Positions 18,336 to 38,617 of a stretch of 64,000 nucleotides of DNA are shown in pieces; positions within the stretch are counted from its first letter, which is position 1; every line of letters begins with the position of its first letter. The DNA is taken from positions 127,630 to 191,629 of the forward strand of contig JAHBUL010000001.1 of NCBI GenBank assembly GCA_019638085.1, written 5' to 3'. The notes under the pieces are model-generated. The model saw only the letters and a program-made list of their open reading frames with translations. It did not search any database and was not told where the DNA came from. A program made the position numbers and the translations under genes. Source of the DNA: Flavobacteriales bacterium (lineage in GTDB: Bacteria; Bacteroidota; Bacteroidia; Flavobacteriales_F; PHOS-HE28).

Positions 18336-18564
18336 GTTACTTCGATGAAGGGCTATTGGCCGCTGGTCCTGCGTTCTGCTGCCAGTGATCATGGGTGGAT
18401 GGAATGTCAAATAGGTCTCTTTCAGGCACCCTTGTCGAGAGCACGAGCTATACGGTTTTGCCTACAACTTAATGCTATATGGACAAGGTCGAGGTACTTC
18501 TTGTTCCTGACGGGTTATCACAACATTCTTGATCACTATAAGCAGCACCGATAGCTTTGTCGGC

Positions 18565-19143: not shown

Positions 19144-19144
19144 T

Positions 19145-19402: not shown

Positions 19403-19427
19403 AACCACAGAAAAGTATCCGATCACC

Positions 19428-20803: not shown

Positions 20804-21408
20804 GTACCAGGCCATTGCTTCTTGTATTTCTGCGCGCTCCCGTGCTGGGGAAAGTAAAAACGCGCTTGGCCGCCACCATGGGGAAGGAAAGGGCGCTGGA
20901 GATCTACAAGCGATTACTTCAGCACACCATTGAACAAGGCGCGGCCTTGGACGTGGACCGTCAGGCGTGGTACGCTGATGAAATTGCCGACCCGGAACCT
21001 TGTGCCGAACTGGGCTACTCGGTGTATGTGCAAGCAGGCAGGGACCTCGGCGATCGTATGAAATGCGCGTTCGGATCAGGTTTCTCCGCCGGTCACGGTC
21101 CCATCATCATTATCGGTACGGACCTCCCCCAGCTGAGCGCCGCTCTGCTTCGCGAAGCCTATATGGCGCTGGAAACCCATGATGCGGTGATCGGTCCCGC
21201 CAACGACGGTGGCTACTACCTATTGGGCTTACGAGAGCCATGTGAGGAGGTCTTCAGCGGGAAGGCTTGGAGTTCGGACAGTGTATATGCACAGACCATT
21301 GAAGACCTGCGTCAGCTAGGTCGCACCTACCATACGCTTCCGACATTGATCGACATTGACACGGCGGAGGACCTCAAAAGCGTTGAAATTCCGGGAGTGG
21401 CTCGCTGA
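20800..21408 (+). CDS. TIGR04282-like (DUF2064) nucleotidyl/glycosyl-transferase-like protein associated with ArsS clusters
   Basis: N-terminus STRPLLLVFLRAPVLGKVKTRL typical of DUF2064; ATGA overlap with arsS. Confidence 0.7.
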   Translation: MSTRPLLLVFLRAPVLGKVKTRLAATMGKERALEIYKRLLQHTIEQGAALDVDRQAWYADEIADPEPCAELGYSVYVQAGRDLGDRMKCAFGSGFSAGHGPIIIIGTDLPQLSAALLREAYMALETHDAVIGPANDGGYYLLGLREPCEEVFSGKAWSSDSVYAQTIEDLRQLGRTYHTLPTLIDIDTAEDLKSVEIPGVAR

Positions 21409-21544
21409 TCGCTGAATTACGCATCGCTCATCCCTCATGTCCGGAGGTGCGTTCATCCGGAATCAGCAATATGCGATGGTATCAGAATACTATCCCTTGG
21501 TGATCAGCTTCTTTGCTGCGCTTGCTACCCACTTTATTGGAGGT

Positions 21545-21586
21545 TACCTTTGTGGTCGAATCCGTACTTAGAATCAATCTAAATAA
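21545..21586 (+). promoter_or_regulatory. Candidate sufCDSE promoter (-7 box TACCTTTG) followed by a 9-5-9 palindromic operator GTACTTAGA-ATCAA-TCTAAATAA
   Basis: Seen directly; a homologous module lies upstream of sufA at 38541-38580. Confidence 0.55.
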
Positions 21587-21613
21587 GCCGATCATCGGCA
21601 GATAACGAATATC

Positions 21614-22354
21614 ATGCTACAGATCAAGGACCTCCATGCCCGCATTGAAGGCAAGGATATTTTGAAAGGCCTCAACCTGGAGGTGAACGCAGGTGAGGTA
21701 CACGCCATTATGGGACCCAACGGAAGTGGCAAAAGCACCTTGGCCAACGTATTGGCCGGGCGCGCCGAATACGAGGTGACCGGGGGAAGCGTGAAGTACT
21801 TTGGAGAGGACCTGCTGGAACTGGCCCCGGAAGAGCGGGCGTGGAAGGGCATCTTTCTCGCCTTCCAATATCCGGTGGAGATCCCCGGGGTAAGCAACAT
21901 GAATTTCCTGCGTACTGCATTGAACGAAGGGAAGAAGGCCCGGGGTGAGGCTGAGCTCAGCGGTAAGGACTTCCTCGCTTTGGTCCGCGAACGCGCCAAG
22001 CTGGTGGAGATGGATCCCGCCCTGATGAACCGCAACCTGAACGTGGGGTTCAGCGGGGGTGAAAAAAAGCGCAACGAGATCTTCCAAATGGCCATGCTGG
22101 AGCCCAGACTGGGCATCCTCGATGAGACAGATAGCGGATTGGACATCGACGCATTGCGCGTGGTTGCAAGCGGAGTGAATACCCTGCGCGCCAAGGACAA
22201 CGCCTTTATCGTGGTGACCCACTACCAGCGCTTGCTGGATCATATCATTCCGGATGTGGTCCACGTGATGGCTGATGGCAAGATCATTCGCAGTGGTCCC
22301 AAGGAGTTGGCCTTGGAGTTGGAGGAAAAAGGATACGATTGGGTGAAAGCGTGA
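21614..22354 (+). CDS. sufC: Fe-S cluster assembly ATPase SufC
   Basis: Walker A GPNGSGKST and ABC signature FSGGEKKR, SufC-like throughout. Confidence 0.9.
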   Translation: MLQIKDLHARIEGKDILKGLNLEVNAGEVHAIMGPNGSGKSTLANVLAGRAEYEVTGGSVKYFGEDLLELAPEERAWKGIFLAFQYPVEIPGVSNMNFLRTALNEGKKARGEAELSGKDFLALVRERAKLVEMDPALMNRNLNVGFSGGEKKRNEIFQMAMLEPRLGILDETDSGLDIDALRVVASGVNTLRAKDNAFIVVTHYQRLLDHIIPDVVHVMADGKIIRSGPKELALELEEKGYDWVKA

Positions 22355-22460
22355 TCGCCGATCAGCCGATGAAATACCGATGCCGCTACACAAGTTGCAC
22401 GGAACTCGTGGAACGCATCGTTACCGTCGAGGCAAGGACTCGACCCCTATAAGCATTGAG

Positions 22461-23786
22461 ATGAGCACCGATCAGATAATGGAACTTAATAAGGACGGGA
22501 GATCTCCCGACACGTTGGATATATCAGGCCCCAAGGCCAGTGTGATGGCGCTGTTGCAAGATGGCACCTGGCCCTTGGCTGCAGAAGCTTTTGCTCGGGT
22601 ACAGGAGTTGCCCATCCCCGACAGGCGGACCGAAATGTGGAAGTACACACGGGTCGCCAAGCTCTTCACCGAAACCTATGGCAAGCCCTTGGGCAATGTG
22701 ATCGTGGAACTTCCGCCGCGCATGCCTTTTCCGACCACCCGCGTGGTCTTCGTGAACGGGCATTTCCGCCCCGACCTCAGTGATGACCGGAAGACGGATA
22801 AAGGCGTTGTGATCGACAGCATCTCGCATCACCTGAGCCATGGGCCGCTAAAAGCACTTTACGGACAGATCGCACCCATTGGTGACCGATTGTTCACGGC
22901 GATGAACATGGCTTCGCCCACGGATGGCCTGTTCATCCTGGCCACCAAGGGCTCGAAGACCAGCAAGCCCATCCATGTGCTGCGCATTACCACGCCCATG
23001 AGCGATGGCCAAGCCATGTTGATCCAACCGCGGGACCTTTTCATGCTGAAGGAAGGTGCTGAGGTGGAGGTGATCGATGAGCATATCTCGATCGGGAACA
23101 CCACGTCCTCGCTGGTGAACGGCGTGCGTGAAAGTGTTGTGGGTGAGGGCGCAAACCTCACGCTGCACCTGTTGCAGAATGAACCCGATGGTCCGGCCGA
23201 TATCGGACTGGACAGCGTGAAGATCGCGGCCAAAGGGAATTTCAGCGTCGATACCACGACGCTCTACGGTTCGCTGGTGCGTAACGAATTGAACGTGGCA
23301 CTCGATGGTGCCGAGGCGCATGCCGAACTCAACGGCGTGTACCTGCTCAACGGTACAGCGCACTGCGACAACCACAGTTACATCGGGCACAACGTGCCGG
23401 ATTGCACCAGCGACGAGCTGTACAAGGGCGTAATTGCCGACAAGGCCACGGGCGTATTCAATGGCAAGGTGTACGTGAAGCAGGATGCCCAACGCACCCG
23501 TGCCTATCAACGGAACGCGAATATCCTTCAGGGTGAACATGCCCGCGTGTATTCCAAGCCCGAACTGGAGATCTACGCGGATGACGTGAAGTGCAGCCAC
23601 GGATGTACGATCGGCCGCATGGATGAAGAGGCCATCTTCTACCTCCGCTCACGTGGTGTAAGTGAGGAAGAGGCGCGCCGCATGATGTCGCATGCGTTCA
23701 TGGTGGATGTGCTGGAGCGCGTTACGAATCCGGATTGGAGAAAACACTTGGGCGATATGATCGATGCAAAGTTGGAAGAGCTATGA
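22461..23786 (+). CDS. sufD: Fe-S cluster assembly protein SufD
   Basis: SufBD-family C-terminal region; positioned between sufC and sufS. Confidence 0.85.
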   Translation: MSTDQIMELNKDGRSPDTLDISGPKASVMALLQDGTWPLAAEAFARVQELPIPDRRTEMWKYTRVAKLFTETYGKPLGNVIVELPPRMPFPTTRVVFVNGHFRPDLSDDRKTDKGVVIDSISHHLSHGPLKALYGQIAPIGDRLFTAMNMASPTDGLFILATKGSKTSKPIHVLRITTPMSDGQAMLIQPRDLFMLKEGAEVEVIDEHISIGNTTSSLVNGVRESVVGEGANLTLHLLQNEPDGPADIGLDSVKIAAKGNFSVDTTTLYGSLVRNELNVALDGAEAHAELNGVYLLNGTAHCDNHSYIGHNVPDCTSDELYKGVIADKATGVFNGKVYVKQDAQRTRAYQRNANILQGEHARVYSKPELEIYADDVKCSHGCTIGRMDEEAIFYLRSRGVSEEEARRMMSHAFMVDVLERVTNPDWRKHLGDMIDAKLEEL

Positions 23787-23877
23787 AGAGGAGAACCGCC
23801 AAGACGCAAAACACGCCAAGAATTCACGCCATCCGGTGCATTTCACGTTGCGCTTAGCGTCTTTGCGGTAAAAAACA

Positions 23878-25134
23878 ATGACGAACTCAATCTCAGCGGT
23901 AAAGCCTGCCTTCGACGTGGAGGAGATCCGTGCACAATTCCCGATATTGAAGGAACTGGTGCATGGCAAGCCGCTGGTCTATTTCGATAATGCCGCAACC
24001 AGCCAGAAGCCGCGTCGTGTGATCAAGGCCGAAAGCGCCTACTACGCCAAGATCAACGCGAACGTCCATCGCGGAGTGCATACGCTGAGCACCTTGGCCA
24101 CCGATGCACAGGAGGCCGCTCGCGAGATCATCCGCGCGCACATCAACGCGAAGCACGTACATGAGGTGATCTTCACCGCTGGTACGACGGCCAGCATGAA
24201 TCTCGCGGCAAACAGCCTCGGACAATTGTTATTGAAGCCGGGTGATGAAGTACTCATCAGTGGCATGGAACACCACGCGAACATCGTTCCCTGGCAATTG
24301 GTCTGTGAGCGATATGGCGCCACGTTGAAGGTGATCCCCATCACGGATACCGGTGAGTTGGACATAGCAGCAGCTGAACAGATGATCGACTCATCAGCTG
24401 ATCGCTTAAAGATCCTATCGCTCACCCACGTCAGCAACACGCTCGGCACGATCAATCCGGTCAAGCAGTTGATCGCTGACGCGAAAAAGCGGGGCATCGT
24501 TACGGTACTCGATGGTGCCCAAGCGGTGCCGCACATGGCCGTGGATGTACAGGATCTCGGCTGCGACCTGTACGCATTCAGCGGACACAAAATGTATGCA
24601 CCCACCGGCATCGGCGTGCTATATGGTCGCGAGGAATTGCTGGAGCAAATGCCACCTTGGCAAGGCGGCGGCGAGATGATCGACCAGGTCACCTTTGAGA
24701 AGACCACCTTCGCCAAGCTACCCTTCAAGTTCGAGGCGGGTACGCCGCACATCGCGGGCATCATCGGCTTGGGCGAGGCCTTCCGCTGGATGCAGGACTA
24801 TGACCTGGAGGCCATGGCAGCGCACGAACATGCGCTGCAGGAACATGCAACCAAGGAGCTGCTCGCCATCGAGGGCTTGCGCATCATCGGAACAGCGAAG
24901 GAGAAAGTGGGTGTGATCAGCTTCGTCATTGATGGGGTTCATCATTACGACCTAGGCACGCTGCTCGACCAGCAAGGTATCGCGGTGCGCACGGGCCACC
25001 ACTGCACACAGCCGTTGATGGACCACTTCGGTATCAGCGGGACCACGCGGGCAAGCTTCGCACCTTTCAATACGACCGCTGAAGTGGATGCCATGGTGGC
25101 GGCCACGAAGAAGGCGGTGAAGATGTTGCGATGA
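23878..25134 (+). CDS. sufS: Cysteine desulfurase SufS
   Basis: Class-V aminotransferase fold with SufS-type motifs (FSGHKMYAPTGIG; RTGHHCTQP). Confidence 0.9.
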   Translation: MTNSISAVKPAFDVEEIRAQFPILKELVHGKPLVYFDNAATSQKPRRVIKAESAYYAKINANVHRGVHTLSTLATDAQEAAREIIRAHINAKHVHEVIFTAGTTASMNLAANSLGQLLLKPGDEVLISGMEHHANIVPWQLVCERYGATLKVIPITDTGELDIAAAEQMIDSSADRLKILSLTHVSNTLGTINPVKQLIADAKKRGIVTVLDGAQAVPHMAVDVQDLGCDLYAFSGHKMYAPTGIGVLYGREELLEQMPPWQGGGEMIDQVTFEKTTFAKLPFKFEAGTPHIAGIIGLGEAFRWMQDYDLEAMAAHEHALQEHATKELLAIEGLRIIGTAKEKVGVISFVIDGVHHYDLGTLLDQQGIAVRTGHHCTQPLMDHFGISGTTRASFAPFNTTAEVDAMVAATKKAVKMLR

Positions 25135-25553
25135 ACACCTCATTGAAAGAAGCCCAACAGGAGATCGTGGACGAGTTCGCCATGCTCGGCGATTGGCAGG
25201 ACCGCTATGAGCACCTGATCGAGCTGGGGAAGGAACTGCCATTGATCGCACCCGAACTCAAGACGGATGAGAACCTTGTGCGCGGATGCCAGAGCCGGGT
25301 ATGGCTCACCGCTGAAGATCGGGGAGAAGCCATCCATTTCACTGCGGACAGTGATGCGATGATCACCAAAGGCTTAGTAGCGCTGCTGGTACGTGTGCTG
25401 AACGACCGCACGCCCGAGGAGATCATGGGCACTCCGCTCACCTTCATCGATGCCATTGGTCTGCGCGAACACCTTTCACCCAACCGCAGCAACGGCCTCG
25501 TGGCCATGCTGGACCAGATGAAGCGGTATGCGTTGGTTTATTCCTCGAAATGA
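25131..25553 (+). CDS. sufE: Cysteine desulfuration protein SufE
   Basis: SufE family with conserved Cys in RGCQSRVWL; overlaps the sufS stop. Confidence 0.85.
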   Translation: MNTSLKEAQQEIVDEFAMLGDWQDRYEHLIELGKELPLIAPELKTDENLVRGCQSRVWLTAEDRGEAIHFTADSDAMITKGLVALLVRVLNDRTPEEIMGTPLTFIDAIGLREHLSPNRSNGLVAMLDQMKRYALVYSSK

Positions 25554-25573
25554 GAGCATCGGAGATACATACT

Positions 25574-25631
25574 TGTCTTATGTCCAATGTCCCACGCTTT
25601 GCAAGCGTCATAGGACATCGGACATGAGACA
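25574..25631 (+). repeat. Nested palindrome/stem-loop in the sufE-sufT intergenic region
   Basis: 19-nt arms TGTCTTATGTCCAATGTCC / GGACATCGGACATGAGACA (17 Watson-Crick pairs, 1 G-U, 1 mismatch) enclosing the perfect inner palindrome ACGCTTTGCAAGCGT. Confidence 0.6.
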
Positions 25632-25658
25632 ATACCACCGCACCTGCGGCACATTAAA

Positions 25659-25979
25659 ATGACCAACGAAGAGAAAAAGCAATTGGAGGAGCGCGTGATC
25701 ATGATGCTCAAGACCGTCTATGACCCGGAGATCCCCGTGGACATCTACGAGCTGGGCTTGATCTACGACGTGGTGGTCCGCGATGATGCAAGCATCTACA
25801 TCAAGATGACCTTGACCAGCCCGGCTTGTCCGGTGGCAGGCACCCTGCCTGGCGAGGTGGAGGAGAAAGTGGCCCAGACCATGGGGGCAAATGGCGCCAA
25901 GGTGGACCTCACCTTCGAACCGGCTTGGGACCGCAGCATGATGAGCGAGGCAGCGATGCTGGAACTCGGGTTCATGTGA
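25659..25979 (+). CDS. sufT: SUF-system Fe-S assembly protein SufT (DUF59/MIP18 family)
   Basis: DUF59 signature (VYDPEIPVDIYELGLIY...TLTSPACP). Confidence 0.8.
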   Translation: MTNEEKKQLEERVIMMLKTVYDPEIPVDIYELGLIYDVVVRDDASIYIKMTLTSPACPVAGTLPGEVEEKVAQTMGANGAKVDLTFEPAWDRSMMSEAAMLELGFM

Positions 25980-26038
25980 TGATCGGACGCAGAGACGCAG
26001 AGAAGAATAACGAGACGCTATTACGCGATGAAGTTTCA

Positions 26039-26554
26039 ATGAGCAACGAAGGTATCATCAACAAGGTCGCGTCCAGTGGCATCATCACCTTGGACCTGGA
26101 AGAGATGTATCCCCATGGTGAGCGTGTGGTTTTCGATATAGCACCGTTGCTGTGGGAAGGGATCGCTTTGAAGGAGAAGGATTTCCGGGAGACGTTGAAA
26201 GCCCATGAATGGTCGCAGTACCAAGGTAAGTTCGTAGCAGTGCACTGCTCGGTGGATGCGATCATCCCCACCTGGGCATACATGCTGGTTGCTACCTATC
26301 TGCAACCTCATGCGGCCTTTGTAACACAAGGTGATGCAGAGCAGATGGAGCGAGCTGTGTTCACCCGCTTTGTGCAACAATTGGATGTGGAACCCTACCG
26401 CGGTGCGCGCATCGTGGTAAAAGGCTGTAGCAAAATGGCTGTGCCCTTGAGTGCTTATGTGGAACTGTCGGCCAAGCTGTTGCCGGAAGTGAAAAGCCTG
26501 ATGTTCGGGGAGCCATGCAGCACCGTGCCGCTGTACAAGGCCCCGAAAGCGTAG
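26039..26554 (+). CDS. DUF2480-family protein
   Basis: Typical Bacteroidota neighbour of sufT; start at internal Met 26039. Confidence 0.6.
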   Translation: MSNEGIINKVASSGIITLDLEEMYPHGERVVFDIAPLLWEGIALKEKDFRETLKAHEWSQYQGKFVAVHCSVDAIIPTWAYMLVATYLQPHAAFVTQGDAEQMERAVFTRFVQQLDVEPYRGARIVVKGCSKMAVPLSAYVELSAKLLPEVKSLMFGEPCSTVPLYKAPKA

Positions 26555-26569
26555 CCTAACTTCGGCATC

Positions 26570-28687
26570 ATGCGTTCGGTTTTTTTTCTTTTGACTTTGC
26601 TGTTGCTCGCTCCGGTATTTCCGCAGGTGGGAACACCTTCTGATAGCCTGAACATTCCCGATAGTGAGAATGGTTGGTACCTCAGCCCGCACGGCACCAT
26701 CCGCATCCTGGTGATCTTCGCCGAGATCGACTACGACAAGAACCCCAAGGACGACCCGCAGCCGAAAGCCACCGCCAATTGGCCAAAGGGTGAGCTACCC
26801 ATATGGAAGGATGACCTCTTCGACCCATTCCCTTCGGAACAACCTAAGGCGCAGGTGACGCGGTACTATCACGAAATGAGCCTGGGGCAGTTCACCGTGC
26901 TGGGCGATTACGTGGATCAGCTGATGATCATTCGCGAGAGTGAACAGCGCAACCTGAGGAATTGGAGCGGCATGGCCTGGGAGGAGGCCAACAAAATGGG
27001 TATGCTGCAAACTGCACATAACCTGTCCATTGAGGATTTCGATATGTGGACGGATGGAGGGCGACCGGGTATGCCCAAGCTGAACGTTCCTGATGATCCG
27101 CACAGTTACGATCATGTGATGGTGATCCTGCGCAACAGCAGCCTTACCCACGGGCAAGGCAGCACCGATGCAGGAAGTGCGGGCCTGCTGTTCGGTTATC
27201 CCAGCGACACCCAAAGTCGCTTCGGTGCAATGAACAGCCTTCCTTTTGCGATCCTGAAGCACGAGTTCAACCACCTTCTATTGGGCGGGAACAACTTCCA
27301 TAGCGGTGGAGGTAATGCCCCGACCTTCACCGGATATTTCATTCCTGTACAAGGCGGCTGGAGCTTGATGGGCGCGGCGAACAGCTCGTTGCTCACCGCC
27401 AGTGCCTGGGATCGCGACCGCTTGGGATGGAGACCGGAGGGAAGCCGCTTTCACATTCGTGCAAGTGATCGGAATGACGCAGAGGTGAATGGTGATCTGG
27501 ATCCATTGGCTGGGGATACCGGGATCTATGTTATACGTGATTTCATCACCAGTGGCGATGCTATTCGCATTCGTATGCCTTTCCTTGAAGCGGATGAATA
27601 CCCCCAATGGCTGTGGCTGGAGAACCACCAGACCAAGAGCAATAACGGTTGCCAAATGGATGTGTTCCATTATGAAGAGATGGACTGTGTGAAGCCTGCG
27701 GTGCCCGGCATCTATGCGCAGATGCAGGTGGACAAGGAAAAGAAGACCGGGAGTGGGATCTATGGAGGGCATGCCGATTACCTGCGGCCCGTATTGGCGA
27801 ACGGGAACTTCGATCAGCGCTTGCGCGGCGATACCATCACCTTCAAATGCTTGTGGCCGGGGCCGACCGAACCCTATGTGGTAAAGCGTGCTTGGGCCAA
27901 TCCGTTGAGCGGAACACAGGATCAGGAATTCCCACTGTTCGATAAGAACGGCGATGGCAAGCTTACCCGGAAGGAAGCGAACGCTCCACGTGTGGGCATC
28001 CATGATGGAAAGATGGTGGATGATGCCGCGTACTTGGGTAGTTCGCGTCAGGTGTTCACCCCACAAGGCAATAGGCGTATTGGCATGGGTACCAACCCCT
28101 CCAGTGCGAACATGCTAAGCTTGGCGACCAACATGAGCATGGAGCAGAACCGGGGGAAGAAGCCGGACAACCGCACCGTGTATCTGAACGGCATCAGCGT
28201 GGAGCTGCTGGAACAGCGCAGCGATGGCGCTATTGTACTCCACATCCGGAGTGGCGATACGCGCCTGACGGAAGATGTGCGCTGGTGTGCCGACAGCATC
28301 GTGCTACCCGGACTGAAGGGGTACAAGGGCACCGCGCTCACCTTGGCAACGAGGAAAACGTTGAAGGTGGATCGCTCCGGTACGCCCACGCGTATGGCGC
28401 AACAAGGTGAGAAGGAAGACGGAACGTTCTGGTTCAGTCCGCCCACGCAATTCACCGTGGCAGCGGATGCACGGATGGTGCTGGAACCCAAAGCGAAGCT
28501 TCAGTTACTGAACAACTCAGTGATGCACCTGATGCCGGGTTCCGAGCTGGTGTTGGGCCGAAAAGCAAAGCTGGATGTCCAGGCCGGTTCACAATTGGTG
28601 CTGCATGGCGATGCATCCCTACAGGCAAAGCCGTGTGTTCTTCGCAAGCTGCGGAAGAATGGACGGATCGTGAACGTTCCCGAGTGA
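26570..28687 (+). CDS. Secreted putative zinc metalloprotease (HExxH) of unassigned family
   Basis: Signal peptide MRSVFFLLTLLLLAPVFPQ; HEFNH zinc-binding motif; no T9SS CTD seen. Confidence 0.55.
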   Translation: MRSVFFLLTLLLLAPVFPQVGTPSDSLNIPDSENGWYLSPHGTIRILVIFAEIDYDKNPKDDPQPKATANWPKGELPIWKDDLFDPFPSEQPKAQVTRYYHEMSLGQFTVLGDYVDQLMIIRESEQRNLRNWSGMAWEEANKMGMLQTAHNLSIEDFDMWTDGGRPGMPKLNVPDDPHSYDHVMVILRNSSLTHGQGSTDAGSAGLLFGYPSDTQSRFGAMNSLPFAILKHEFNHLLLGGNNFHSGGGNAPTFTGYFIPVQGGWSLMGAANSSLLTASAWDRDRLGWRPEGSRFHIRASDRNDAEVNGDLDPLAGDTGIYVIRDFITSGDAIRIRMPFLEADEYPQWLWLENHQTKSNNGCQMDVFHYEEMDCVKPAVPGIYAQMQVDKEKKTGSGIYGGHADYLRPVLANGNFDQRLRGDTITFKCLWPGPTEPYVVKRAWANPLSGTQDQEFPLFDKNGDGKLTRKEANAPRVGIHDGKMVDDAAYLGSSRQVFTPQGNRRIGMGTNPSSANMLSLATNMSMEQNRGKKPDNRTVYLNGISVELLEQRSDGAIVLHIRSGDTRLTEDVRWCADSIVLPGLKGYKGTALTLATRKTLKVDRSGTPTRMAQQGEKEDGTFWFSPPTQFTVAADARMVLEPKAKLQLLNNSVMHLMPGSELVLGRKAKLDVQAGSQLVLHGDASLQAKPCVLRKLRKNGRIVNVPE

Positions 28688-28696
28688 GCCTGTTGA

Positions 28697-30001: not shown

Positions 30002-31470
30002 GTGGTAGTGCGCAGCGAATGCACCACGGAGTACCAGCCCACCAGCCCGAAGCCGAGCGCCAACATGATGTGGTAGGGCAAGAGCCCGAGGTCGCCGGTG
30101 CGGAAGCCGATCACGATGCCCCATACCGCATAAGCCGCGATCGCGCCTTCCAACACAGTGATCGGACTGATCACGCTCTTCCAATAGCCATCACGGCGGA
30201 TCGCCTTGTCGCCTTTGTCGCCACCGAGCTTCGGGGTCCGCAAGAACGGAGTGCGACGTCCTGCGTAGCCCTCCAGTACAGCGATGGCATTGTGCAGCGA
30301 AAGGCCCATGCTTACGGAAAGGAACAACGGGAAGGTCCACAGGAACCGCAGGGTGCCGCGCCATTCGGGCATGTCCTTGCGGTGGGCGATCCAATAGAAC
30401 ACCACCAGCACCAGCAAGGCGAACGTGAAGACGATCGCAATGTTGAACAGCATGCGCAGTTCGGGATGGTCCTGTTTCACCAGCAGCACGGGTACGCTAA
30501 GCAGGGCCGTGCCGAGGATGCACACGAAAACGGTGCTGTTCATCAAGTGGAAGAGCGCGTGGACCTTCGTGGAGAATGACAACGCGGGATCGCGGAGCAC
30601 GCTCGGTAGGTTTTTCACCACGCACTCCGCCGCGCCCTTGTTCCAGCGGTATTGCTGCGTCTTCAGCGCGTTCATGGCAGCGAGCAGTTCGGCGGGCGAC
30701 ACCACGTTCTCCAAGTAGTGGAACTGCCAACCTTTCAACTGTGCGCGGTAGCTCAGGTCGAGGTCCTCGGTGAGCGTATCGGGTCGCCAACCGCCCGCAT
30801 CCGTGATGCATGCCTTGCGGCAAACACCCGCCGTGCCGTTGAAATTGATGAAGCGGCCCATGGTGTTCCGGCCCACCTGCTCTACGGAGAAGTGCGCGTC
30901 CAGCCCGAAGGCCTGCAGGCGCGTGAGCAGGTTGCTGTCGCGGTTGATGTGGCCCCAGCAGGTCTGCACCATGCCGATCCCCGGATCGTTGAACCACGGG
31001 ACCACCGCTTGGAGCAGGTCCGTTGGTGGAAGGAAATCGGCATCGAAAATGGCGATCAGTTCACCCTTCGCGCGTTCCGTTCCGTAGGCCAACGCACCGG
31101 CCTTGAAGCCCGTGCGGTCCGGCCTGCGGATCAGCGTTATGTCAATGCCCTGCGCCTGCCAATGCGCAACGCGTTCCGCGGCCAACCGGGTGGTCTCGTC
31201 CGTGCTATCGTCCAGCACCTGCACCTCGAAGCGGTCGTGCGGCCAATCCATTTTCGCCACTTGGTCGATCAGCCGTTCCACCACGTGGCGCTCGTTGTAC
31301 AGGGGCAATTGCACCGTTACCAATGGCCGCTTGCCGAAGACGGGCGGGGGCATCATCCGCACGTGCTTTTCCTTGTGCAGGTAGGCCCAGGTGAGCTGCA
31401 ACTGTACCACGCTGAAGAGCAGGATGAAGCTCAACAACAGGCCGTAAACGATGAGCAGTGCGATGGCCAT
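29998..31470 (-). CDS. Processive family-2 glycosyltransferase (cellulose/chitin-synthase-like, membrane-embedded)
   Basis: DDSTDET and downstream D motifs, QQYRW (QxxRW) motif, N-terminal TM plus C-terminal TM bundle; start at internal Met 31470. Confidence 0.75.
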   Translation of the reverse strand: MAIALLIVYGLLLSFILLFSVVQLQLTWAYLHKEKHVRMMPPPVFGKRPLVTVQLPLYNERHVVERLIDQVAKMDWPHDRFEVQVLDDSTDETTRLAAERVAHWQAQGIDITLIRRPDRTGFKAGALAYGTERAKGELIAIFDADFLPPTDLLQAVVPWFNDPGIGMVQTCWGHINRDSNLLTRLQAFGLDAHFSVEQVGRNTMGRFINFNGTAGVCRKACITDAGGWRPDTLTEDLDLSYRAQLKGWQFHYLENVVSPAELLAAMNALKTQQYRWNKGAAECVVKNLPSVLRDPALSFSTKVHALFHLMNSTVFVCILGTALLSVPVLLVKQDHPELRMLFNIAIVFTFALLVLVVFYWIAHRKDMPEWRGTLRFLWTFPLFLSVSMGLSLHNAIAVLEGYAGRRTPFLRTPKLGGDKGDKAIRRDGYWKSVISPITVLEGAIAAYAVWGIVIGFRTGDLGLLPYHIMLALGFGLVGWYSVVHSLRTTT

Positions 31471-32162
31471 CAGCGGTATTTGATGATGGTGGTGATGATC
31501 TTCCAGCCCGCCAGCACCGAGCCCTTCACCGTGCCGCTGATCTTCGAAAAGCCGATCCGCTTGCGGTAATCCACGGGCACTTCCGTGATCCGCAGGCGCT
31601 GTTTCGCGGCCTTCAGTTGCATCTCCACCGTCCACCCGAAGGTACGATCGCGCATGCCCATGGCCTGAAGCGCTTCCCAACGCACGGCACTGAACGGGCC
31701 GAGATCAGTGTATTTCACGCCGTAGAAAAGCTTGAGCATTCGTGTTGCCAACCAGTTGCCGAAGATCTGCTGGGGCATCATGCTGCCCGCATCACGATGG
31801 CCCAACGCACGCGAACCGATCACGAAGTCGGCATGTCCCTCGACGATCGGCGTGACCACTTCCGTCATCTGCTCCGGGTGGTCGCTGTTGTCCGCGTCGA
31901 TGAAAACCACGATGTCCGGCGGCGGCTCGTGCGTGGCTACCTGCGCAATGCCCTTCAAGCAGGCATTGCCGTAGCCGCGCTCCGGCTGGTCCACCACGAT
32001 GGCGCCCGCAGCCCGGGCCATCTCGCTGGTCTTGTCGCTGCTGGCGTTGTTCACCACCACGATATGGCGCACCAATCCTTTAGGGATGTCGCGCACCACC
32101 AGGCCCACGGCCTCCTGCTCATTGAAAGCGGGGATGATGACGTCGATGATCGGTGCTGGCAT
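31470..32162 (-). CDS. Family-2 glycosyltransferase, dolichyl/polyprenyl-phosphate sugar synthase-like
   Basis: N-terminus IIPAFNEQEAV and DAD-type motif FIDADNSD; stop overlaps the start of the next gene. Confidence 0.75.
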   Translation of the reverse strand: MPAPIIDVIIPAFNEQEAVGLVVRDIPKGLVRHIVVVNNASSDKTSEMARAAGAIVVDQPERGYGNACLKGIAQVATHEPPPDIVVFIDADNSDHPEQMTEVVTPIVEGHADFVIGSRALGHRDAGSMMPQQIFGNWLATRMLKLFYGVKYTDLGPFSAVRWEALQAMGMRDRTFGWTVEMQLKAAKQRLRITEVPVDYRKRIGFSKISGTVKGSVLAGWKIITTIIKYR

Positions 32163-32303
32163 GGCCCTCTGGCGGGGTTGCGAAGAAACGGCTTCGCACG
32201 CCGATGTGGTTTACATACGGTGTAGCGGTGCCTCGTGGTTGGTCGTGATCCGAGGAGGAACTGACAGTTTCGAAACAAAGGCAACGGTGAAGCCCGCAAA
32301 TGC

Positions 32304-33878
32304 CTAACGCAACGTTGCGCCAGTCTTCCCGATGGCGATTGGATCGCTGCTGAAACGCCCAGGGACCTTTCCGTTCTCCAACTTCAGTACTCCCCTTGGG
32401 CACGCCGCTGCGCAGATGCCGCAACCCACGCAGCTGGAGCGCACGATGTTCTCGCCGCGTTGCGCGTAGCTGCGCACGTCGATGCCCATTTCGCAGTAGG
32501 TGCTGCAGTTGCCGCAGCTGATGCACTGCCCGCCGTTGGTGGTGATGCGGAAGCGCGAGAAGAAGCGCTGTTGCATGCCGAGGATCGCCGCCATGGGGCA
32601 ACCGAAGCGACACCACACGCGGCTGCCCATCAGCGGATAGAAGCCCACGCCTATCACGCCGTTGAAGATGGAGCCGATCGCGAAGCCGTAGGTTTTCCGC
32701 AGCGGATAGCTCTGCACGAAGAAGATGTCGCCGCGACCCGTGAAGTAGGCCCACGCCGTGAAACCGATGAGCAGCACCGCGACGCCGATGCCGACGAAGC
32801 GGGCGGTCCGGTCGATCTCCTTCACCATGCCGGGCCGGATCAGCAGTACGGCGGCCACCGCACCGAGGACGATCACGATGATGCCGAGCAACATGCCGCG
32901 CGTCACCCAAAAGCCTTTCGCACTGTCGCTGCCGAGGTAGCTGTAGATCAGCGCTGCCGTCATCAACACCGCGAAGACGAGCACCGCATGGATCACCCAG
33001 CGCTCGATCTTCCAGGCCTTCACGCTCTTGTCGCTGAGCTGCCGGAAGGGATCGCCCGCCGTTTCCGCCAAGCCGCCGCAACCGCAGACCCACGAGCAGT
33101 ACCAGCGCTTGCCGTAGAAGTAGGTGAGGATAGGCGAAATGATGAAGATCATCGCCACGCCGAAGAGCAGCATGAACAGGCCGAAACCGCCCGCGTCGAT
33201 CATGCCCTTCACGCTCCAATCATCGAAGAAGTAGTAGTTGAGCGGCCACATGTTCTTGAAGTCGTTGTACGGCAAACTGAGCCGCGCCAATACTTCCGGG
33301 ATCAAGAATGCGAAGCCGAGCTGGAAGAACATCACCGAGCTGGTGCGCACCACTTCGTACTTGTTGTGCCGGTATTTCAAAATGAATTTGATGCCCATTG
33401 AGAGGATGGCCACCGTGTAGAGCGTGCCGTAGACGAACCACTGCGAGGCCGGGTTGCCACTTAGAAGCCTGCTGAGCGGATCGAAGAGCGCGATGATGCC
33501 GGTGTTCGCTTTGCCATCGCCAGTGAGGCCGAGGTATTGCGGAAAGAAATAAAGCACCACGTAGAATCCCGTGAGCAGGATGCCGACCACCCACGCCACC
33601 GCGCCGCGCGAGGTGAGGCTATTGTGCCAAACGCCGTCGTTCTTGATGCCCGCCGGCCGATGCGCATACGAGCGCCAAGCATAGCCCACCGCGCCAACGC
33701 CGATGGCGAGCAGGGCTGAAGTGAGCCAAAGGCCCGCATGCGGAATTTGCTCCATCGGCAGGCTCATCAGCAAGCCGAGAACGCCCAAGGCCGCCAACGC
33801 CAGCGCGCCTTTTTGCAAGCCGTCCAAGCTCCCGCTGTGCGGTGCCGCGATCGAGAGGCTGTGGACCGAACGGCTCAT
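32304..33878 (-). CDS. Polytopic 4Fe-4S polyferredoxin of the NapH/CcoG(FixG) family
   Basis: Membrane Cys motifs CSWVCGCGG and CRFGCP plus a C-terminal 2x[4Fe-4S] ferredoxin domain (CISCGNCSTYC...CVGCGICAAACP). Confidence 0.75.
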   Translation of the reverse strand: MSRSVHSLSIAAPHSGSLDGLQKGALALAALGVLGLLMSLPMEQIPHAGLWLTSALLAIGVGAVGYAWRSYAHRPAGIKNDGVWHNSLTSRGAVAWVVGILLTGFYVVLYFFPQYLGLTGDGKANTGIIALFDPLSRLLSGNPASQWFVYGTLYTVAILSMGIKFILKYRHNKYEVVRTSSVMFFQLGFAFLIPEVLARLSLPYNDFKNMWPLNYYFFDDWSVKGMIDAGGFGLFMLLFGVAMIFIISPILTYFYGKRWYCSWVCGCGGLAETAGDPFRQLSDKSVKAWKIERWVIHAVLVFAVLMTAALIYSYLGSDSAKGFWVTRGMLLGIIVIVLGAVAAVLLIRPGMVKEIDRTARFVGIGVAVLLIGFTAWAYFTGRGDIFFVQSYPLRKTYGFAIGSIFNGVIGVGFYPLMGSRVWCRFGCPMAAILGMQQRFFSRFRITTNGGQCISCGNCSTYCEMGIDVRSYAQRGENIVRSSCVGCGICAAACPRGVLKLENGKVPGRFSSDPIAIGKTGATLR

Positions 33879-35176
33879 GCGATAACGGTATTTCCTTGTT
33901 TGAATGAAGCACGGATGGCGGGCTCGGAACGGTGGTGGAGCTCGGGGTCGAATGCGGCTTCGTGCAAGTGTTCCACCACGTGATCCACGGTCGTTCTTTC
34001 GCGCAGCCAGCGATCGAACACTTCATGCCGCAAACGGAAGCCGAAGCTGTTCACGCCGTGCAGCACGCGGTTTTTCGCGTTCCACACCAAGTGCAGCGCG
34101 GACTTTCCGTTGGGATGTTCCCAGTAATGTCCGGCCTCGCCGTCCTGCAATTCGTTGCGCACCCAGCCGTAGGTCTGGTATTCAATGTCGAAGAACTTCG
34201 CGCTGTTGAACCAGATGCCGGGATCGTACGCGGTGCGATCGCCAGTGAGCGTGCGGGCCACGGTCTCTCCCATCAATCGACCGGTGTACCACACCTGCTC
34301 GATGTTCTTCCGCTGCGGATCGGGATGTTCGTGGAATTCCACGCAGTCGCCGATCGCGAAGACGTCCGCTGCGCTGGTCTCCAAGTAGGTGTTCACCAGC
34401 ACGCCCTTTTTCGTTTTGATGCCCGGACTTTCCTTCAGCCACTTGATGTTCGGGTGTACGCCGACCGCAAGCCCGACAAAGCCGCAATCGATGGTGTCGC
34501 CGCCCTTCGTTCGCACCGCTTGCACGCGTCCGTCAGCACCCGCGAGCACTTCTTCCAATTCCGTGTTGAAATGCAGGTCCACGCCATGCTCGCGCATGTG
34601 CCGCGTGATCAGGTCCGCTTCCTGCTTTGGAAGAATGCCGCCCCAGAAACTGTCCTCGCGCACGAAGAAGGTCACTTCAATGTTCCGCGTGCGCAGCATC
34701 TCCGCCATCTCCACGCCGATCAATCCGCCGCCCACGATCACCGCGCGCGAAATGCCCTTCGTGTTGGCTTCCATCGCTTCCACGTCCTGCAAGCTGTACA
34801 GGCCCTGCACGCCGGGCAGGTCCTGCCCGGGCCAGCCGAACATATTGCTCTCGCTGCCGGTGGCGATGATGAGTTTGTCGTAGTCGACCGCACTGCCATT
34901 GCTCAACATCACGGATTTTTTTTCGGTGTCGATCCGCGCCACCTTGGCGTGCTTCAACGCGATGCGGTTCTTTGCCCAGAAATGGTCCTCGTAGGGCTTG
35001 ATGTCGCGATAGCGCATGTGGCCCATGTACAGGTACATCAGCGCGGTGCGGCTGAAGAAATGCTCGCTTTCCTTGCCGATCACGGTGATCCGCGCATCGC
35101 TCCGTTTGCGGATGTGCCGCGCCGCCGTGATGCCGCTGATGCCGTTGCCGATGATGACGATGCGATCGTTGCTCAT
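33875..35176 (-). CDS. FAD/NAD(P)-dependent pyridine-nucleotide-disulfide-family oxidoreductase
   Basis: N-terminal IVIIGNGISG Rossmann motif and a second NAD(P) motif VIVGGGLIG; ATGA overlap with the polyferredoxin gene. Confidence 0.8.
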   Translation of the reverse strand: MSNDRIVIIGNGISGITAARHIRKRSDARITVIGKESEHFFSRTALMYLYMGHMRYRDIKPYEDHFWAKNRIALKHAKVARIDTEKKSVMLSNGSAVDYDKLIIATGSESNMFGWPGQDLPGVQGLYSLQDVEAMEANTKGISRAVIVGGGLIGVEMAEMLRTRNIEVTFFVREDSFWGGILPKQEADLITRHMREHGVDLHFNTELEEVLAGADGRVQAVRTKGGDTIDCGFVGLAVGVHPNIKWLKESPGIKTKKGVLVNTYLETSAADVFAIGDCVEFHEHPDPQRKNIEQVWYTGRLMGETVARTLTGDRTAYDPGIWFNSAKFFDIEYQTYGWVRNELQDGEAGHYWEHPNGKSALHLVWNAKNRVLHGVNSFGFRLRHEVFDRWLRERTTVDHVVEHLHEAAFDPELHHRSEPAIRASFKQGNTVIA

Positions 35177-35227
35177 GTGCGAAATTTGTGCGATGCGCGT
35201 GCCTCATTGGCTGTCGCGATCATCACA

Positions 35228-35563
35228 ATGTACCTGACAACACGGCTAGCCTTCTCCCTGTTCTTAGGACTTGCCACTCTGCATCCTGGGAAATTGCAGG
35301 CGCAGAAGATCGATGGGGTTTGCTTCAGCGCTCCACCGCGAGAGGACTGCAACAGCAACATTGCGCATGTGGAAGCCATCGGCGCCAACTGGCTCGGAGG
35401 ATACAAGAGCGGCCACGAAGAGCGACAAGGGAATGGATTTTCACCGCAAGGGAAGGCAGCCTTGAACGTGCTGCGCAAGGAGAACAAGGGGGAGTACGGA
35501 GAGCACAGAAAGTATGAATCAACGCAACCGTGCTATCTTCGGGAGAACCGGATGGGATCCTGA
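35228..35563 (+). CDS. Candidate small secreted hypothetical protein (about 111 aa)
   Basis: 3' portion of long antisense ORF 33932..35563 that lies beyond the oxidoreductase gene; Met at 35228 with signal-like MYLTTRLAFSLFLGLATL and a charged C-terminal half. Confidence 0.3.
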   Translation: MYLTTRLAFSLFLGLATLHPGKLQAQKIDGVCFSAPPREDCNSNIAHVEAIGANWLGGYKSGHEERQGNGFSPQGKAALNVLRKENKGEYGEHRKYESTQPCYLRENRMGS

Positions 35564-35606
35564 TGTCAGGAAAGCTTGACGATCACGACGTCTTCGGTGG
35601 AACACC

Positions 35607-36218
35607 ATGCGTAACTGGACCACGACCATTCCTCTTTTGCTTGCCACGTTTTGTGGCACGGTGGAAGCGTATGCGCAAGAACATCCTTTTCTTTCCGAGT
35701 ATTCGCTGAACGAACTTTCCAATGGCGTGCTGGTCACTTGGACCATCCATGGTGGAAGCACATGCGACGGACAAGAAGTGCAGCGCTCCACGGACAGCCT
35801 GAACTTTACGACGGTGCATGTGATCCAAGGGATCTGCGGAAGCCCGGAAAGTTCCACGCCCTACATCTGGTTCGACCCTACACCGCCCGAACTCAGCAAG
35901 GTCTACTACAAATTGAAATTGGGTTTTGATGGATACAGCTCGGTGAAATCCGTGTTCTTCGCCCAGCTCAACGAAAGTGAACAGCGCTTCTTCCCCAATC
36001 CTGTGACGGATGTGGCGACCTTGGTGGTGGATGCAAAGCCGAACACCCCGGTGGACCTGCTTGTTTTCGATGGGTCCGGGAAACTGGTGGTTAGCTTGAA
36101 CGGACTGAACGGGCCGACCTTGGATGTGCCCGTGCGTAAGCTACCGGCCGGGGTGTACAGTTATCGTGCGAGCACGCCGACAGGCCGCTCATTCAGTGGT
36201 CGCTTCGTGAAAAACTGA
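35607..36218 (+). CDS. Small T9SS-secreted protein (type-A CTD)
   Basis: Signal peptide plus C-terminal FFPNPVTDVATLVV...GVYSY CTD. Confidence 0.7.
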   Translation: MRNWTTTIPLLLATFCGTVEAYAQEHPFLSEYSLNELSNGVLVTWTIHGGSTCDGQEVQRSTDSLNFTTVHVIQGICGSPESSTPYIWFDPTPPELSKVYYKLKLGFDGYSSVKSVFFAQLNESEQRFFPNPVTDVATLVVDAKPNTPVDLLVFDGSGKLVVSLNGLNGPTLDVPVRKLPAGVYSYRASTPTGRSFSGRFVKN

Positions 36219-36230
36219 AACGCACAAAAA

Positions 36231-36263
36231 AAGCAGGCACTTGCGATCCGCAAACGCCTGCTT
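36231..36263. terminator. Bidirectional rho-independent terminator between convergent genes
   Basis: AAAAAAA-AGCAGGC...(nested TTGCG-ATC-CGCAA)...GCCTGCT-TTT. Confidence 0.6.
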
Positions 36264-36278
36264 TCAAGGATGTTCGGT

Positions 36279-36602
36279 TCAGACTTCCTTCACCTCGGCG
36301 ATCGGCGCATTCTTCTTCACGCTCTCGATGCCCCCATCGCGTGAGCTTTCGGTGGTATACACTTGGCTGGAGCCGATCACTTGCTTGTTGGCGGCGAGCA
36401 GGTTGAACGAGGCACCAGCATCTGTGGTCTTGCATTCGTAGTTGGCATCGTCAGACGCGTTGGCCTTCACGCTCTCGATTCCGTTCGTGGCGGATGCCTT
36501 GGAGGTGTAGCCTTGGCTGGCCAAGATGATCTCGCCGTTCCCGGCCTTCAAGCGAAAACGGAATTGATCGGCTTTATCGGTATACAATTCAAATGTTGCC
36601 AT
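36279..36602 (-). CDS. DUF1508 (YegP-like) tandem-domain protein
   Basis: Two YegP repeats (FELYTDKADQFRFRLKAGNGEII; ECKTTDAGASFNLLAANKQVI). Confidence 0.8.
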   Translation of the reverse strand: MATFELYTDKADQFRFRLKAGNGEIILASQGYTSKASATNGIESVKANASDDANYECKTTDAGASFNLLAANKQVIGSSQVYTTESSRDGGIESVKKNAPIAEVKEV

Positions 36603-36656
36603 GGTCTTCAGAGGTTTTAGTGATGAACAGAAGGTTCGCAGCTAAGGTAAGATTCT

Positions 36657-36685
36657 GTGAGAAAAGCCTAACGCATTTAGGCCTC
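36657..36685 (-). terminator. Candidate rho-independent terminator just after sufB
   Basis: On the minus strand: GGCCTAA-ATGCG-TTAGGC followed by TTTTCTC, starting about 25 nt past the sufB stop. Confidence 0.45.
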
Positions 36686-36707
36686 AACCCGCAACGGATC
36701 GTGGTCC

Positions 36708-38156
36708 TTACCCGACACTCCCCTCCAAACTCACCGCCAGCAATTTCTGCGCTTCAACTGCAAACTCCATGGGCAGCTGGTTCAGAACATCCTTGCAGTA
36801 GCCGTTCACGATCAAGCTGATCGCTTTCTCGGGAGGTATGCCGCGCTGGTTCAGGTAGAAGAGCTGGTCCTCACCGATCTTGCTCGTGGTGGCCTCGTGC
36901 TCCACCATGGCGCTCGGGTTCTCACTTTCGATATACGGGAAGGTATGTGCTCCGCAACGGTCGCCGAGCAGGAGCGAATCGCACTGGCTGAAGTTGCGCG
37001 CACCCTGTGCGCCCTTTCCGATCCTTACCAGGCCGCGATAGCTGTTGTTGCTGCGCCCGGCGCTGATACCCTTGCTGATGATGGTGCTCTTGGTGCCTTT
37101 GCCGATGTGGATCATTTTGGTCCCCGTGTCGGCCTGTTGCTTGAACTTGGTGAGGGCCACGCTGTAGAATTCGCCTACGCTGTTGTCGCCCTTAAGCACG
37201 CAACTGGGGTATTTCCAAGTGATGGCACTACCGGTCTCCACCTGCGTCCAGCTGATCTTGCTGCGGTCGCCCAGGCACAGGCCACGTTTGGTGACGAAGT
37301 TGTACACCCCACCCACGCCGTGCTCATCCCCGGGGTACCAGTTCTGTACGGTGCTGTACTTGATCTCCGCATCCTTCATCGCCACCAGCTCCACTACGGC
37401 GGCATGCATCTGGTTCTCGTCACGCATCGGTGCCGTGCAGCCTTCGAGGTAGCTCACGTAGGCACCTTCGTCGGCGATCAACAAGGTGCGCTCGAACTGG
37501 CCCGTGTTCGCTGAGTTGATCCGGAAGTAGGTGCTCAATTCCATGGGGCAGCGCACGCCGGGCGGGATGTAGCAGAAGCTGCCGTCGCTGAATACCGCGC
37601 TGTTCAGCGCCGCATAGAAGTTGTCCGTGCGGGGGACGACGCTCCCCAAGTATTTGCGCACCAGATCAGGATGGTTCTGTACCGCATCGCTGAAGCTGCT
37701 GAAGATGATCCCCTTCTCCTTGAGCGCCGATTGGAACGTGGTCTTCACGCTCACGCTATCGAACACCACGTCCACGGCCACACCGACCAAGCGCTTCTGT
37801 TCCTGAAGCGAGATCCCCAATTTCTCAAAGGTCTTGATCAGCTCCGGGTCGGCCTCGTCCAAGCTGTTGAGCGAAGGCTTTTGCTTCGGAGCACTATAAT
37901 AGTGGGCATCCTGGAAATCCACTGGAGGGTAGTTCACAAAGGCCCATGTGGGCTCCACCATCTTCAACCAACCCCGGAACGCCTCCAAGCGCCATTCCAG
38001 CAGCCATTCGGGCTCGTTCTTCTTGGCGCTGATGTAGCGGACGATATCCTCATTCAACCCCTTGGGGGCCAATTCACTTTCGATATCGGTAACAAAGCCG
38101 AACTCGTACTCCTTGTTGGCTACTTCCTGAAGGAGTTCGTCGCTGGTCTGAGACAT
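36708..38156 (-). CDS. sufB: Fe-S cluster assembly protein SufB
   Basis: Full-length SufB similarity (e.g. [38 protein letters not shown]). Confidence 0.9.
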
Positions 38157-38204
38157 ATGATCGCTGATTTTTTACTGTAAGGAGAATGGATTCTTCCGGA
38201 AGGA

Positions 38205-38531
38205 CTAAATGCTGAAGCTTTCACCACAGCCACAGGTGCGGCTGGCATTGGGGTTGACGAACTGGAAACCCTTCCCGTTAAGGCCGCCACTGAATTCCAA
38301 TGTGGTACCCAACAAGTAGAGGAGGCTTTTCTTGTCCACCACCACCTTCACGCCATTGTCCTCGAACACTTTGTCGCCATCCTGCATCTTGTCGTCAAAG
38401 ACCAGATCATAGGAGAGGCCACTGCATCCACCGCCCTTAACGCCCACACGCACAAAGTGCTGTGGCCCCCGGCCTTCCATGCCGAGAAGTTTGGAGAATT
38501 CTTCTTTTGCGTTGTTACTGACCTTGATCAT
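38205..38531 (-). CDS. sufA: A-type Fe-S cluster carrier (SufA/IscA/ErpA, HesB family)
   Basis: HesB family with CSG...CGCGESF cysteine ligands. Confidence 0.85.
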   Translation of the reverse strand: MIKVSNNAKEEFSKLLGMEGRGPQHFVRVGVKGGGCSGLSYDLVFDDKMQDGDKVFEDNGVKVVVDKKSLLYLLGTTLEFSGGLNGKGFQFVNPNASRTCGCGESFSI

Positions 38532-38540
38532 GCTGGTTCG

Positions 38541-38580
38541 TTATTTAGAATCTGTCTAAATAATCTCGGCCACAAAGATA
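38541..38580 (-). promoter_or_regulatory. Candidate sufAB promoter (-7 box TATCTTTG) followed by a perfect 9-5-9 palindromic operator TTATTTAGA-CAGAT-TCTAAATAA
   Basis: Seen directly; paralogous to the module upstream of sufC. Confidence 0.55.
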
Positions 38581-38617
38581 CAAAGCAATAAAGCCGCGAA
38601 CAATGGTCGCGTATTCC

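Follow-up and report, generated by a model that had tools for sequence, protein, structure and literature searches.

A candidate Fur box at both promoters of a divided suf operon in an uncultured Flavobacteriales lineage

In the 64-kb stretch of DNA analysed here (the window), which derives from an uncultured lineage labelled 'Flavobacteriales bacterium' by NCBI and encodes type IX secretion sorting domains, the suf genes for iron–sulfur (Fe–S) assembly are divided between two convergent units, sufAB and sufCDSE-sufT. A near-identical module lies 5' of sufC on the plus strand and of sufA on the minus strand, consisting in both cases of a TTG, 20 nt, a TAnnTTTG box, 11–13 nt and an AT-rich 19-bp palindrome (Table 1). 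This arrangement raises the question of which protein reads the palindrome and why a copy stands before each half of the operon. The most probable answer, to which a rough probability of 0.78 can be attached, is that each palindrome is a Fur box of the Bacteroidota type, that is, an ordinary iron-responsive operator situated just 3' of a -33/-7 type promoter. The consensus of the box is a 19-bp 9-1-9 inverted repeat, ATTTAGAAT-T-ATTCTAAAT.

A preliminary description of this DNA had reported the two modules, and their sequences and coordinates are as it gave them, as are the distances of 9 nt (sufA) and 27 nt (sufC) between the end of the palindrome and the ATG. The order of a TGGYCGA motif followed by an inverted repeat is likewise correct, except that 4 nt (sufC) or 2 nt (sufA) intervene between the two; the repeat itself, described as 9-5-9, is perfect at sufA, whereas the left arm at sufC pairs at only seven of nine positions. 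The TTG is assigned as a putative -33 element from the published Bacteroidota promoter model (-33 TTG / -7 TAnnTTTG; cited in PMC5609570), and a sigma-70 promoter scan gave nothing relevant, as expected for Bacteroidota. In the window, which has a G+C content of 57%, a search with TTATTTAGA-N5-TCTAAATAA allowing up to three mismatches found two sites, those at sufA and sufC, with none expected from 100 shuffles. A position weight matrix built from relatives scores these sites at 32.1 and 28.9 bits, respectively, and detected no third copy in the 64 kb at 0 bits or above. The heptamers ATTTAGA and TCTAAAT have no occurrence elsewhere in the window, which therefore contains no further copy or half-site, in agreement with the earlier inspection by eye.

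Table 1. Positions of promoter elements, suf genes and neighbouring features in the window. L numbers are loci from other contigs and genomes.
Feature	Position	Strand	Remarks
Putative -33 element TTG, sufC promoter	21522..21524	+	20 nt 5' of the -7 box, read from the sequence
Octamer CTTTATTG, sufC promoter	21532-21539	+	5 nt 5' of the -7 box
-7 box TACCTTTG, sufC promoter	21545..21552	+	kept in the orthologous sufC promoters of L217, L215 and L214
TGGTCGA, sufC module	21553-21559	+	followed by ATCC before the palindrome
Left palindrome arm GTACTTAGA, sufC	21564-21572	+	followed by ATCAA
Right palindrome arm TCTAAATAA, sufC	21578-21586	+	
Candidate Fur box GTACTTAGAatcaaTCTAAATAA, sufC	21564..21586		core 21566-21584, starting 13 nt after the -7 box and ending 29 nt before the ATG
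Small G+C hairpin GCCGATCATCGGC, sufC 5' leader	21587..21599	+	directly 3' of the sufC box
sufC	21614-22354	+	NCBIfam; ATG at 21614
sufD	22380-23786	+	NCBIfam
sufS	23878-25134	+	NCBIfam
sufE	25131-25553	+	NCBIfam
SUF-associated DUF59/sufT-like gene	25659-25979	+	NCBIfam
Plus-strand suf unit	21614..25979	+	
Terminator-like hairpin	38595..38611	-	3' of the upstream beta-lactamase-family gene; the octamer CTTTATTG (38593-38586) forms the T-rich tail of the hairpin
Putative -33 element TTG, sufA promoter	38601..38603	-	20 nt 5' of the -7 box, the same spacing as in the sufC promoter
Octamer CTTTATTG, sufA promoter	38593-38586	-	5 nt 5' of the -7 box
-7 box TATCTTTG, sufA promoter	38573..38580	-	kept in L011/L014, L012, L015 and L216
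TGGCCGA, sufA module	38572-38566	-	followed by GA before the palindrome
Left palindrome arm TTATTTAGA, sufA	38563-38555	-	followed by CAGAT
Right palindrome arm TCTAAATAA, sufA	38549-38541	-	
Candidate Fur box TTATTTAGAcagatTCTAAATAA, sufA	38541..38563		perfect 9-5-9 repeat; core 38543-38561, starting 11 nt after the -7 box and ending 11 nt before the ATG
sufA	38531-38205	-	NCBIfam; ATG at 38531
sufB	38156-36708	-	NCBIfam
Minus-strand suf unit	36708..38531	-	
EgtB-like (DinB_2 + FGE-sulfatase) and EgtD-like (histidine-specific methyltransferase) genes	12205-16084		class-V aminotransferase gene adjoining on the opposite strand
Hydrolase-OsmC gene	17115-18392		
Four-gene cassette	18565-21408	+	between the hydrolase-OsmC gene and the sufC promoter
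ECF sigma factor gene	18565-19143	+	Pfam; member of the cassette
Pyr_redox_2 oxidoreductase gene	33875-35176	-	intact, 433 residues; 5' of a 4Fe-4S protein gene
sigma-54 gene	42088-43542		annotation from same-species loci
IS110-family transposase gene	47146-48351	-	DEDD_Tnp_IS110 + Transposase_20

A comparison within the Flavobacteriales, with Riemerella anatipestifer, indicates the identity of the palindrome. A 19-bp box, ATTTAGAATTATTCTAAAT, was predicted from the Fur-regulated promoters of this bacterium (Guo et al., 2017; PMC5609570), and the two window cores, ATTTAGAcagATTCTAAAT and AcTTAGAATcAaTCTAAAT, each agree with it at 16 of 19 positions. All mismatches but one between this box and the sufA core (ATTTAGACAGATTCTAAAT) or the sufC core (ACTTAGAATCAATCTAAAT) fall in the central three to five positions. 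In R. anatipestifer, Fur shifts promoter fragments that contain the box in electrophoretic mobility shift assays (EMSAs; PMC5609570), Fur binds a receptor promoter in an Mn2+-dependent manner (Huang et al., 2021), and deletion of either the box in the bidirectional rhuH/rhuR promoter or of fur itself derepresses rhuH (PMC11967795). The deleted box appears to be the listed ATTTAGAATAATTTTAAAT, for which PMC5609570 gives distances of 25 bp to one start codon (rhuH) and 78 bp to that of hmuR (rhuR); the two were equated by these two identical distances, the text of PMC11967795 printing no sequence.

The window sites and the R. anatipestifer box thus have in common the 19-bp 9-1-9 palindrome, a placement within 100 bp of the start codon beside a -33/-7 type promoter, and the kinds of genes that are co-regulated, namely those for TonB-dependent receptors and haem/iron uptake. 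They differ in that the window, from an uncultured lineage with a 57% G+C genome segment, carries the box at suf promoters and in two copies, one per half of the split operon, whereas the R. anatipestifer study lists no suf gene among those bearing the box and classes suf as iron-induced independently of Fur. No description of this box at suf promoters emerged from a literature search that combined suf with Fur or Rrf2 in Bacteroidetes.

Conservation shows that the palindrome is a maintained feature of sufA promoters. The sufA module is identical in ten same-species contigs, and in close relatives the palindrome reads TTATTTAGAtggatTCTAAATAG (L011/L014), TTGTTTAGAactaaTCTAAATAA (L012/L016) or CTGTTTAGActcatTCTAAATAA (L015). 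A metagenome scan with SufA provided a more distant Bacteroidota set of 80 loci (62–94% SufA identity), about 45 of which have the box just 5' of sufA; matrix hits across 711 kb of these loci fall almost solely at that position. Positions T4–A9 and T15–A18 of the arms are invariant or at least 90% conserved, while the five central bases are variable. A -7 box can be recognised in 41 sufA promoters; the core starts 5–17 nt after it in 34 of these and lies 31–55 nt upstream of it, over the -33 region, in six. Both placements suit occlusion of the promoter. Comparison with the suf promoters of relatives therefore finds the motif conserved and supports the earlier proposal of a promoter-proximal DNA operator that places both suf halves under common control. 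In two loci (L055:6364-6386 and L068:8359-8381) the box is located between a sufA-like gene and sufB rather than 5' of the sufA-like gene.

The presence of a second copy is linked to the division of the operon. A contiguous suf operon with a single box at sufA is the ancestral state, and where sufB and sufC are separated by 1.7 kb or less on the same strand the gap contains no box (44 of 44 loci). All four of the split relatives that were found possess a sufC promoter with its own -7 box, followed 11–13 nt later by a Fur box. The latter reads TCATTTAGAcctgtTCTAAATAA in L013, which has a 3.9-kb insertion with opposite-strand genes, TGATTTAGAacgatTCTAAATAA in L214 and CTATTTAGAaccatTCTAAATAA in L215, in both of which sufC stands apart from sufB, and TTGCTTAGAatcaaTCTAAATAA in L217, the ortholog of the window sufC promoter. 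The sufC box and the -7 element are kept in the orthologous promoters, and the spacer and flanks have diverged. The hydrolase-OsmC gene of the window has counterparts directly divergent from sufC in L217 (85% identity) and L215 (71% identity), and the split therefore predates these lineages, with the box maintained since. In L013 the box of the sufA promoter (L013:9960-10000) is degenerate (TTGGAacagaTCCAG, no matrix hit) and the separate sufC keeps a good box. A gene for a '23S rRNA intervening sequence' four-helix-bundle protein directly follows sufB in relatives (L011:11941-12429 and L216:5553-5963), standing between sufB and sufC in L216. R. anatipestifer has the gene of a 'four helix bundle protein', RAYM_06462, between sufA and sufB, and this gene shares the iron induction of suf (PMC5609570, Table 3).

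The box is not confined to suf promoters. An exact scan with YTATTTAGANNNNNTCTAAATAR against one genome per species (185,579 species) returned at least 120 sites, and the counts that follow refer to the 120 matches listed. About 114 of these belong to the Bacteroidota (Flavobacteriales, Cytophagales, Chitinophagales/Saprospiraceae, Sphingobacteriales and Bacteroidales), Ignavibacteria, Rhodothermales or Balneolaceae, and only about 18 adjoin suf genes. Clustering of the flanking open reading frames combined with Pfam identified hemA (glutamyl-tRNA reductase; 19), an AraC-type regulator divergent from hemA (18), TonB-dependent receptors with a Plug domain (10), SufA (8), c-type cytochromes resembling those of alternative complex III (7), NqrA (6), SufB/D (4), Fur-family regulators (3; L114, L119 and L152), FeoA (2), Fe/Mn superoxide dismutase (2) and IscS-like desulfurase (2), with one each of an extracytoplasmic function (ECF) sigma factor, a PepSY-TM-like protein and an NADH dehydrogenase 20-kDa subunit. 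A succinate dehydrogenase cytochrome b gene, recognised by eye only, also stands beside a box. This gene set is an iron regulon. The preliminary description had left the binding factor unknown, a statement that is superseded by the match of the core to the R. anatipestifer Fur box and by the membership of fur itself in the iron regulon that bears this box across the Bacteroidota. At the non-suf genome sites most boxes could not be placed by a strict search for TAnnTTTG nearby, which proved too stringent.

The most frequent single context among these matches is the intergenic region between divergent AraC-type and hemA genes in Flavobacteriaceae and some Sphingobacteriales. In this arrangement the AraC-type start is approximately 20–45 nt and hemA approximately 150–160 nt from the box, as in L155:3227-3249 and about 20 further loci (L108, L130, L131, L164, L168, L188, L190, L191, L195, L199, L208 and L210 among them).

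Fur is the predicted binder in the window organism on the strength of sequence comparison, and a simple mechanism can be proposed. When iron is sufficient, a Fur-family dimer carrying its metal, the product of a gene elsewhere in the genome, would bind the box at roughly +5 to +25 and there impede initiation or the escape of polymerase from the promoter. Iron limitation would release Fur and de-repress sufAB and sufCDSE-sufT together. The putative transcription start and the direction of control, repression, are suggested by the position of the box and by the biology of suf in Escherichia coli. Since SufB is encoded in one unit and SufC and SufD in the other, possession of the box by both would keep the components of the SufBC2D scaffold co-regulated after the split.

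Several observations weigh against Fur as the binder, or as the sole binder. In R. anatipestifer sufA, sufB and sufD are induced by iron restriction (PMC5609570); in strain YM this induction (log2 1.3–2.6) occurs in the fur mutant as well as in the wild type, and suf is not listed as derepressed in the iron-replete fur mutant (PMC5609570, Table 3). Receptor genes that bear the box, such as RAYM_09824, also keep a large iron response in the fur mutant (PMC5609570). Part of the iron control of suf is therefore independent of Fur, at least in that bacterium, and a further factor may contribute to the iron response. In addition, the EMSAs were performed on whole promoter fragments, so that direct proof of Fur contacting this 19-mer is limited, and the abstract of the study quotes the E. 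coli consensus (PMC5609570). Among the matches listed an AraC-type gene is the most frequent neighbour of the box (18 of 120, versus three of 120 for fur). Finally, in agreement with the preliminary description, no Fur- or IscR(Rrf2)-type gene was detected in the 64-kb window by tblastn, for which two Fur sequences and one of E. coli IscR served as queries; the AraC-type protein, used in the same way, also had no match there.

These points bear on whether the box might be the operator of another trans-acting regulator, such as a PerR-like paralogue of the Fur family, the AraC-type regulator beside hemA or a different iron or Fe–S sensor, in which case the label 'Fur box' would be only partly right in R. 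anatipestifer. Such a regulator, which we consider unlikely, could account for the iron induction of suf and of 'Fur-regulated' receptor genes in the fur mutant and for the location of the box 5–45 nt 5' of the AraC-type start in most of 21 cluster loci. A PerR-like protein would also fit the presence of hemA, fur and superoxide dismutase in the gene set, as these are typical PerR targets in Bacillus. An exact box is found 36–60 nt 5' of an AhpC-like peroxiredoxin gene (recognised by eye) in Akkermansia sp. (L106:7768-7790) and Sulfuricella sp. (L140:5671-5693), at 56–60% G+C, which suggests that sites of this type, read by a Fur-family and perhaps PerR-like protein, exist beyond the Bacteroidota. 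However, deletion of fur has the same effect as deletion of the box at rhuH, the binding of Fur to the receptor promoter depends on Mn2+, a single Fur-family gene is reported for F. psychrophilum and Bizionia, and the non-suf targets among the matches listed are dominated by TonB-dependent receptors and feoA. A compact 19-bp 9-1-9 palindrome is moreover the classical architecture of a Fur box, unlike typical AraC-family sites, and the box also occurs in orders in which the AraC–hemA pair was not observed. Because of this compactness, this wider taxonomic spread and the fur and box deletion data, the AraC-type gene is regarded as a target rather than the binder. It is also rather improbable that a second regulator of iron or Fe–S status, or a Fur-family paralogue independent of the deleted fur, reads the ATTTAGA-N5-TCTAAAT box in addition to Fur. 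Such a second reader would explain the iron-inducible suf and receptor genes of the R. anatipestifer fur mutant, and in that case the suf boxes would point to a regulon controller of iron and respiratory metabolism in Bacteroidota that has yet to be described.

The inverted repeat could instead act as an RNA hairpin in the sufA and sufC 5' leaders, affecting stability or translation. It lies 3' of the -7 box at both window promoters and is thus probably transcribed, and the sufA leader folds a 9-bp hairpin with a z-score of -4.6 relative to shuffled sequences. Nevertheless, the hairpin is weak (-5.5 kcal/mol at sufA, with only five pairs at sufC), and across 39 distinct sites 82.1% of cells are paired, compared with 82.2% when the 3' letters are shuffled. 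The covariation score (0.086) is equally close to that of the shuffled control (0.085), and departures from the consensus mostly break the pairing. The palindromy therefore arises from two independently conserved half-sites. One box can serve a divergent gene pair, and in the six lineages with the box upstream of the -7 box it is outside the sufA transcript; the box therefore acts as DNA, and a role as RNA is very improbable. A structured cis-regulatory RNA is largely refuted by folding, by covariation over the 39 sites and by Rfam, which has no match in 21000-39200. Hardly more credible is the possibility that the similarity is a relic of a duplication of the sufA promoter at the time of the split, or a mobile repeat, with no present role. 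The modules do share bases beyond the recognised elements, namely TGGYCGA and the octamer CTTTATTG, and the latter is missing from the nearest orthologous promoters (L217 for sufC and L014 for sufA) and is therefore not what is conserved. Its occurrence in both window promoters may reflect gene conversion between them or coincidence. The sufC promoters of L217, L215, L214 and L013, on the other hand, keep the box and the -7 element despite diverged spacers and flanks. The preliminary description had regarded occurrence at unrelated positions such as the ends of insertion sequences (ISs) as a sign of a chance or repeat-derived sequence; genome sites are indeed many, but they lie in the promoters of genes related to iron and not in IS ends or repeats, and 117 of the 120 matches listed are intergenic.

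The Fur-box assignment can be compared with two better known systems. The sufABCDSE promoter of E. coli is reportedly controlled by Fur (Outten et al., 2004, cited in PMC5609570), together with IscR and OxyR. The logic proposed for the window is the same, an iron-sensing repressor site at a SUF promoter with induction on iron starvation, whereas the box sequence differs, neither window promoter has an IscR type-2-like site and both are of the Bacteroidota -33/-7 type. The E. coli-type Fur box GATAATGATAATCATTATC has no match within three mismatches anywhere in the window and shares only the 9-1-9 architecture, and the IscR type-2 operator pattern A-N3-CC-N2-A-N7-TA-N-GG-N3-T has 11 matches in the window with up to one mismatch (6.9 expected), none of them in either promoter. 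The earlier statement that the palindrome is neither a classical Fur box nor an IscR box is therefore upheld for the E. coli-type Fur consensus and for the IscR type-2 pattern. SUF is probably the main Fe–S system of the source organism and not a stress back-up as in E. coli. PerR of Bacillus subtilis is a Fur-family peroxide sensor that recognises an AT-rich palindrome and has hemA, fur and oxidative-stress genes in its regulon. The Bacteroidota boxes resemble this system in being AT-rich palindromes for a Fur-family protein, as proposed here, and in having hemA, fur and superoxide dismutase in their gene set, and differ from it in that the set is dominated, among the matches listed, by TonB-dependent receptors, feoA, suf and respiratory complexes.

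If the palindromes are Fur boxes, the supposed unknown regulator of the two suf units is removed, the element being the flavobacterial Fur box. A box so far described in one pathogen would be extended to suf promoters across the Bacteroidota and to the Ignavibacteria, Rhodothermales and Balneolaceae. The split operon would provide an example of regulatory bookkeeping in evolution, in which the distal half of a broken suf operon has its own promoter and Fur box and SufB remains co-regulated with SufC and SufD. The genes beside the box (nqr, cytochromes, hemA/AraC, superoxide dismutase, feoA and TonB receptors) would constitute a draft iron regulon for environmental Bacteroidota, which have been little studied.

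Other features of the locus were noted. The small hairpin in the sufC leader has a counterpart in L217, GCCGCttgGCGGC (approximately L217:1268-1280), in which both partners of one pair are changed; the sequence of L013 at this position is GCCGACC.... Among the neighbouring genes the only regulator identified by Pfam is the ECF sigma factor that opens the cassette between the hydrolase-OsmC gene and the sufC promoter; the other three members of the cassette are a CMD-family protein, a radical-SAM/DUF3641 protein and a TIGR04282 'arsenosugar biosynthesis glycosyltransferase'. The IS110-family transposase gene has no relation to the palindromes. The EgtB-like and EgtD-like genes form a probable ergothioneine-type thiol-histidine biosynthesis cluster. 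Several same-species contigs (L001, L005, L007 and L008) have the Pyr_redox_2 gene, a single intact frame in the window, annotated as two parts of 90 and 344 residues, a difference that indicates either a frameshift polymorphism or an error of assembly.

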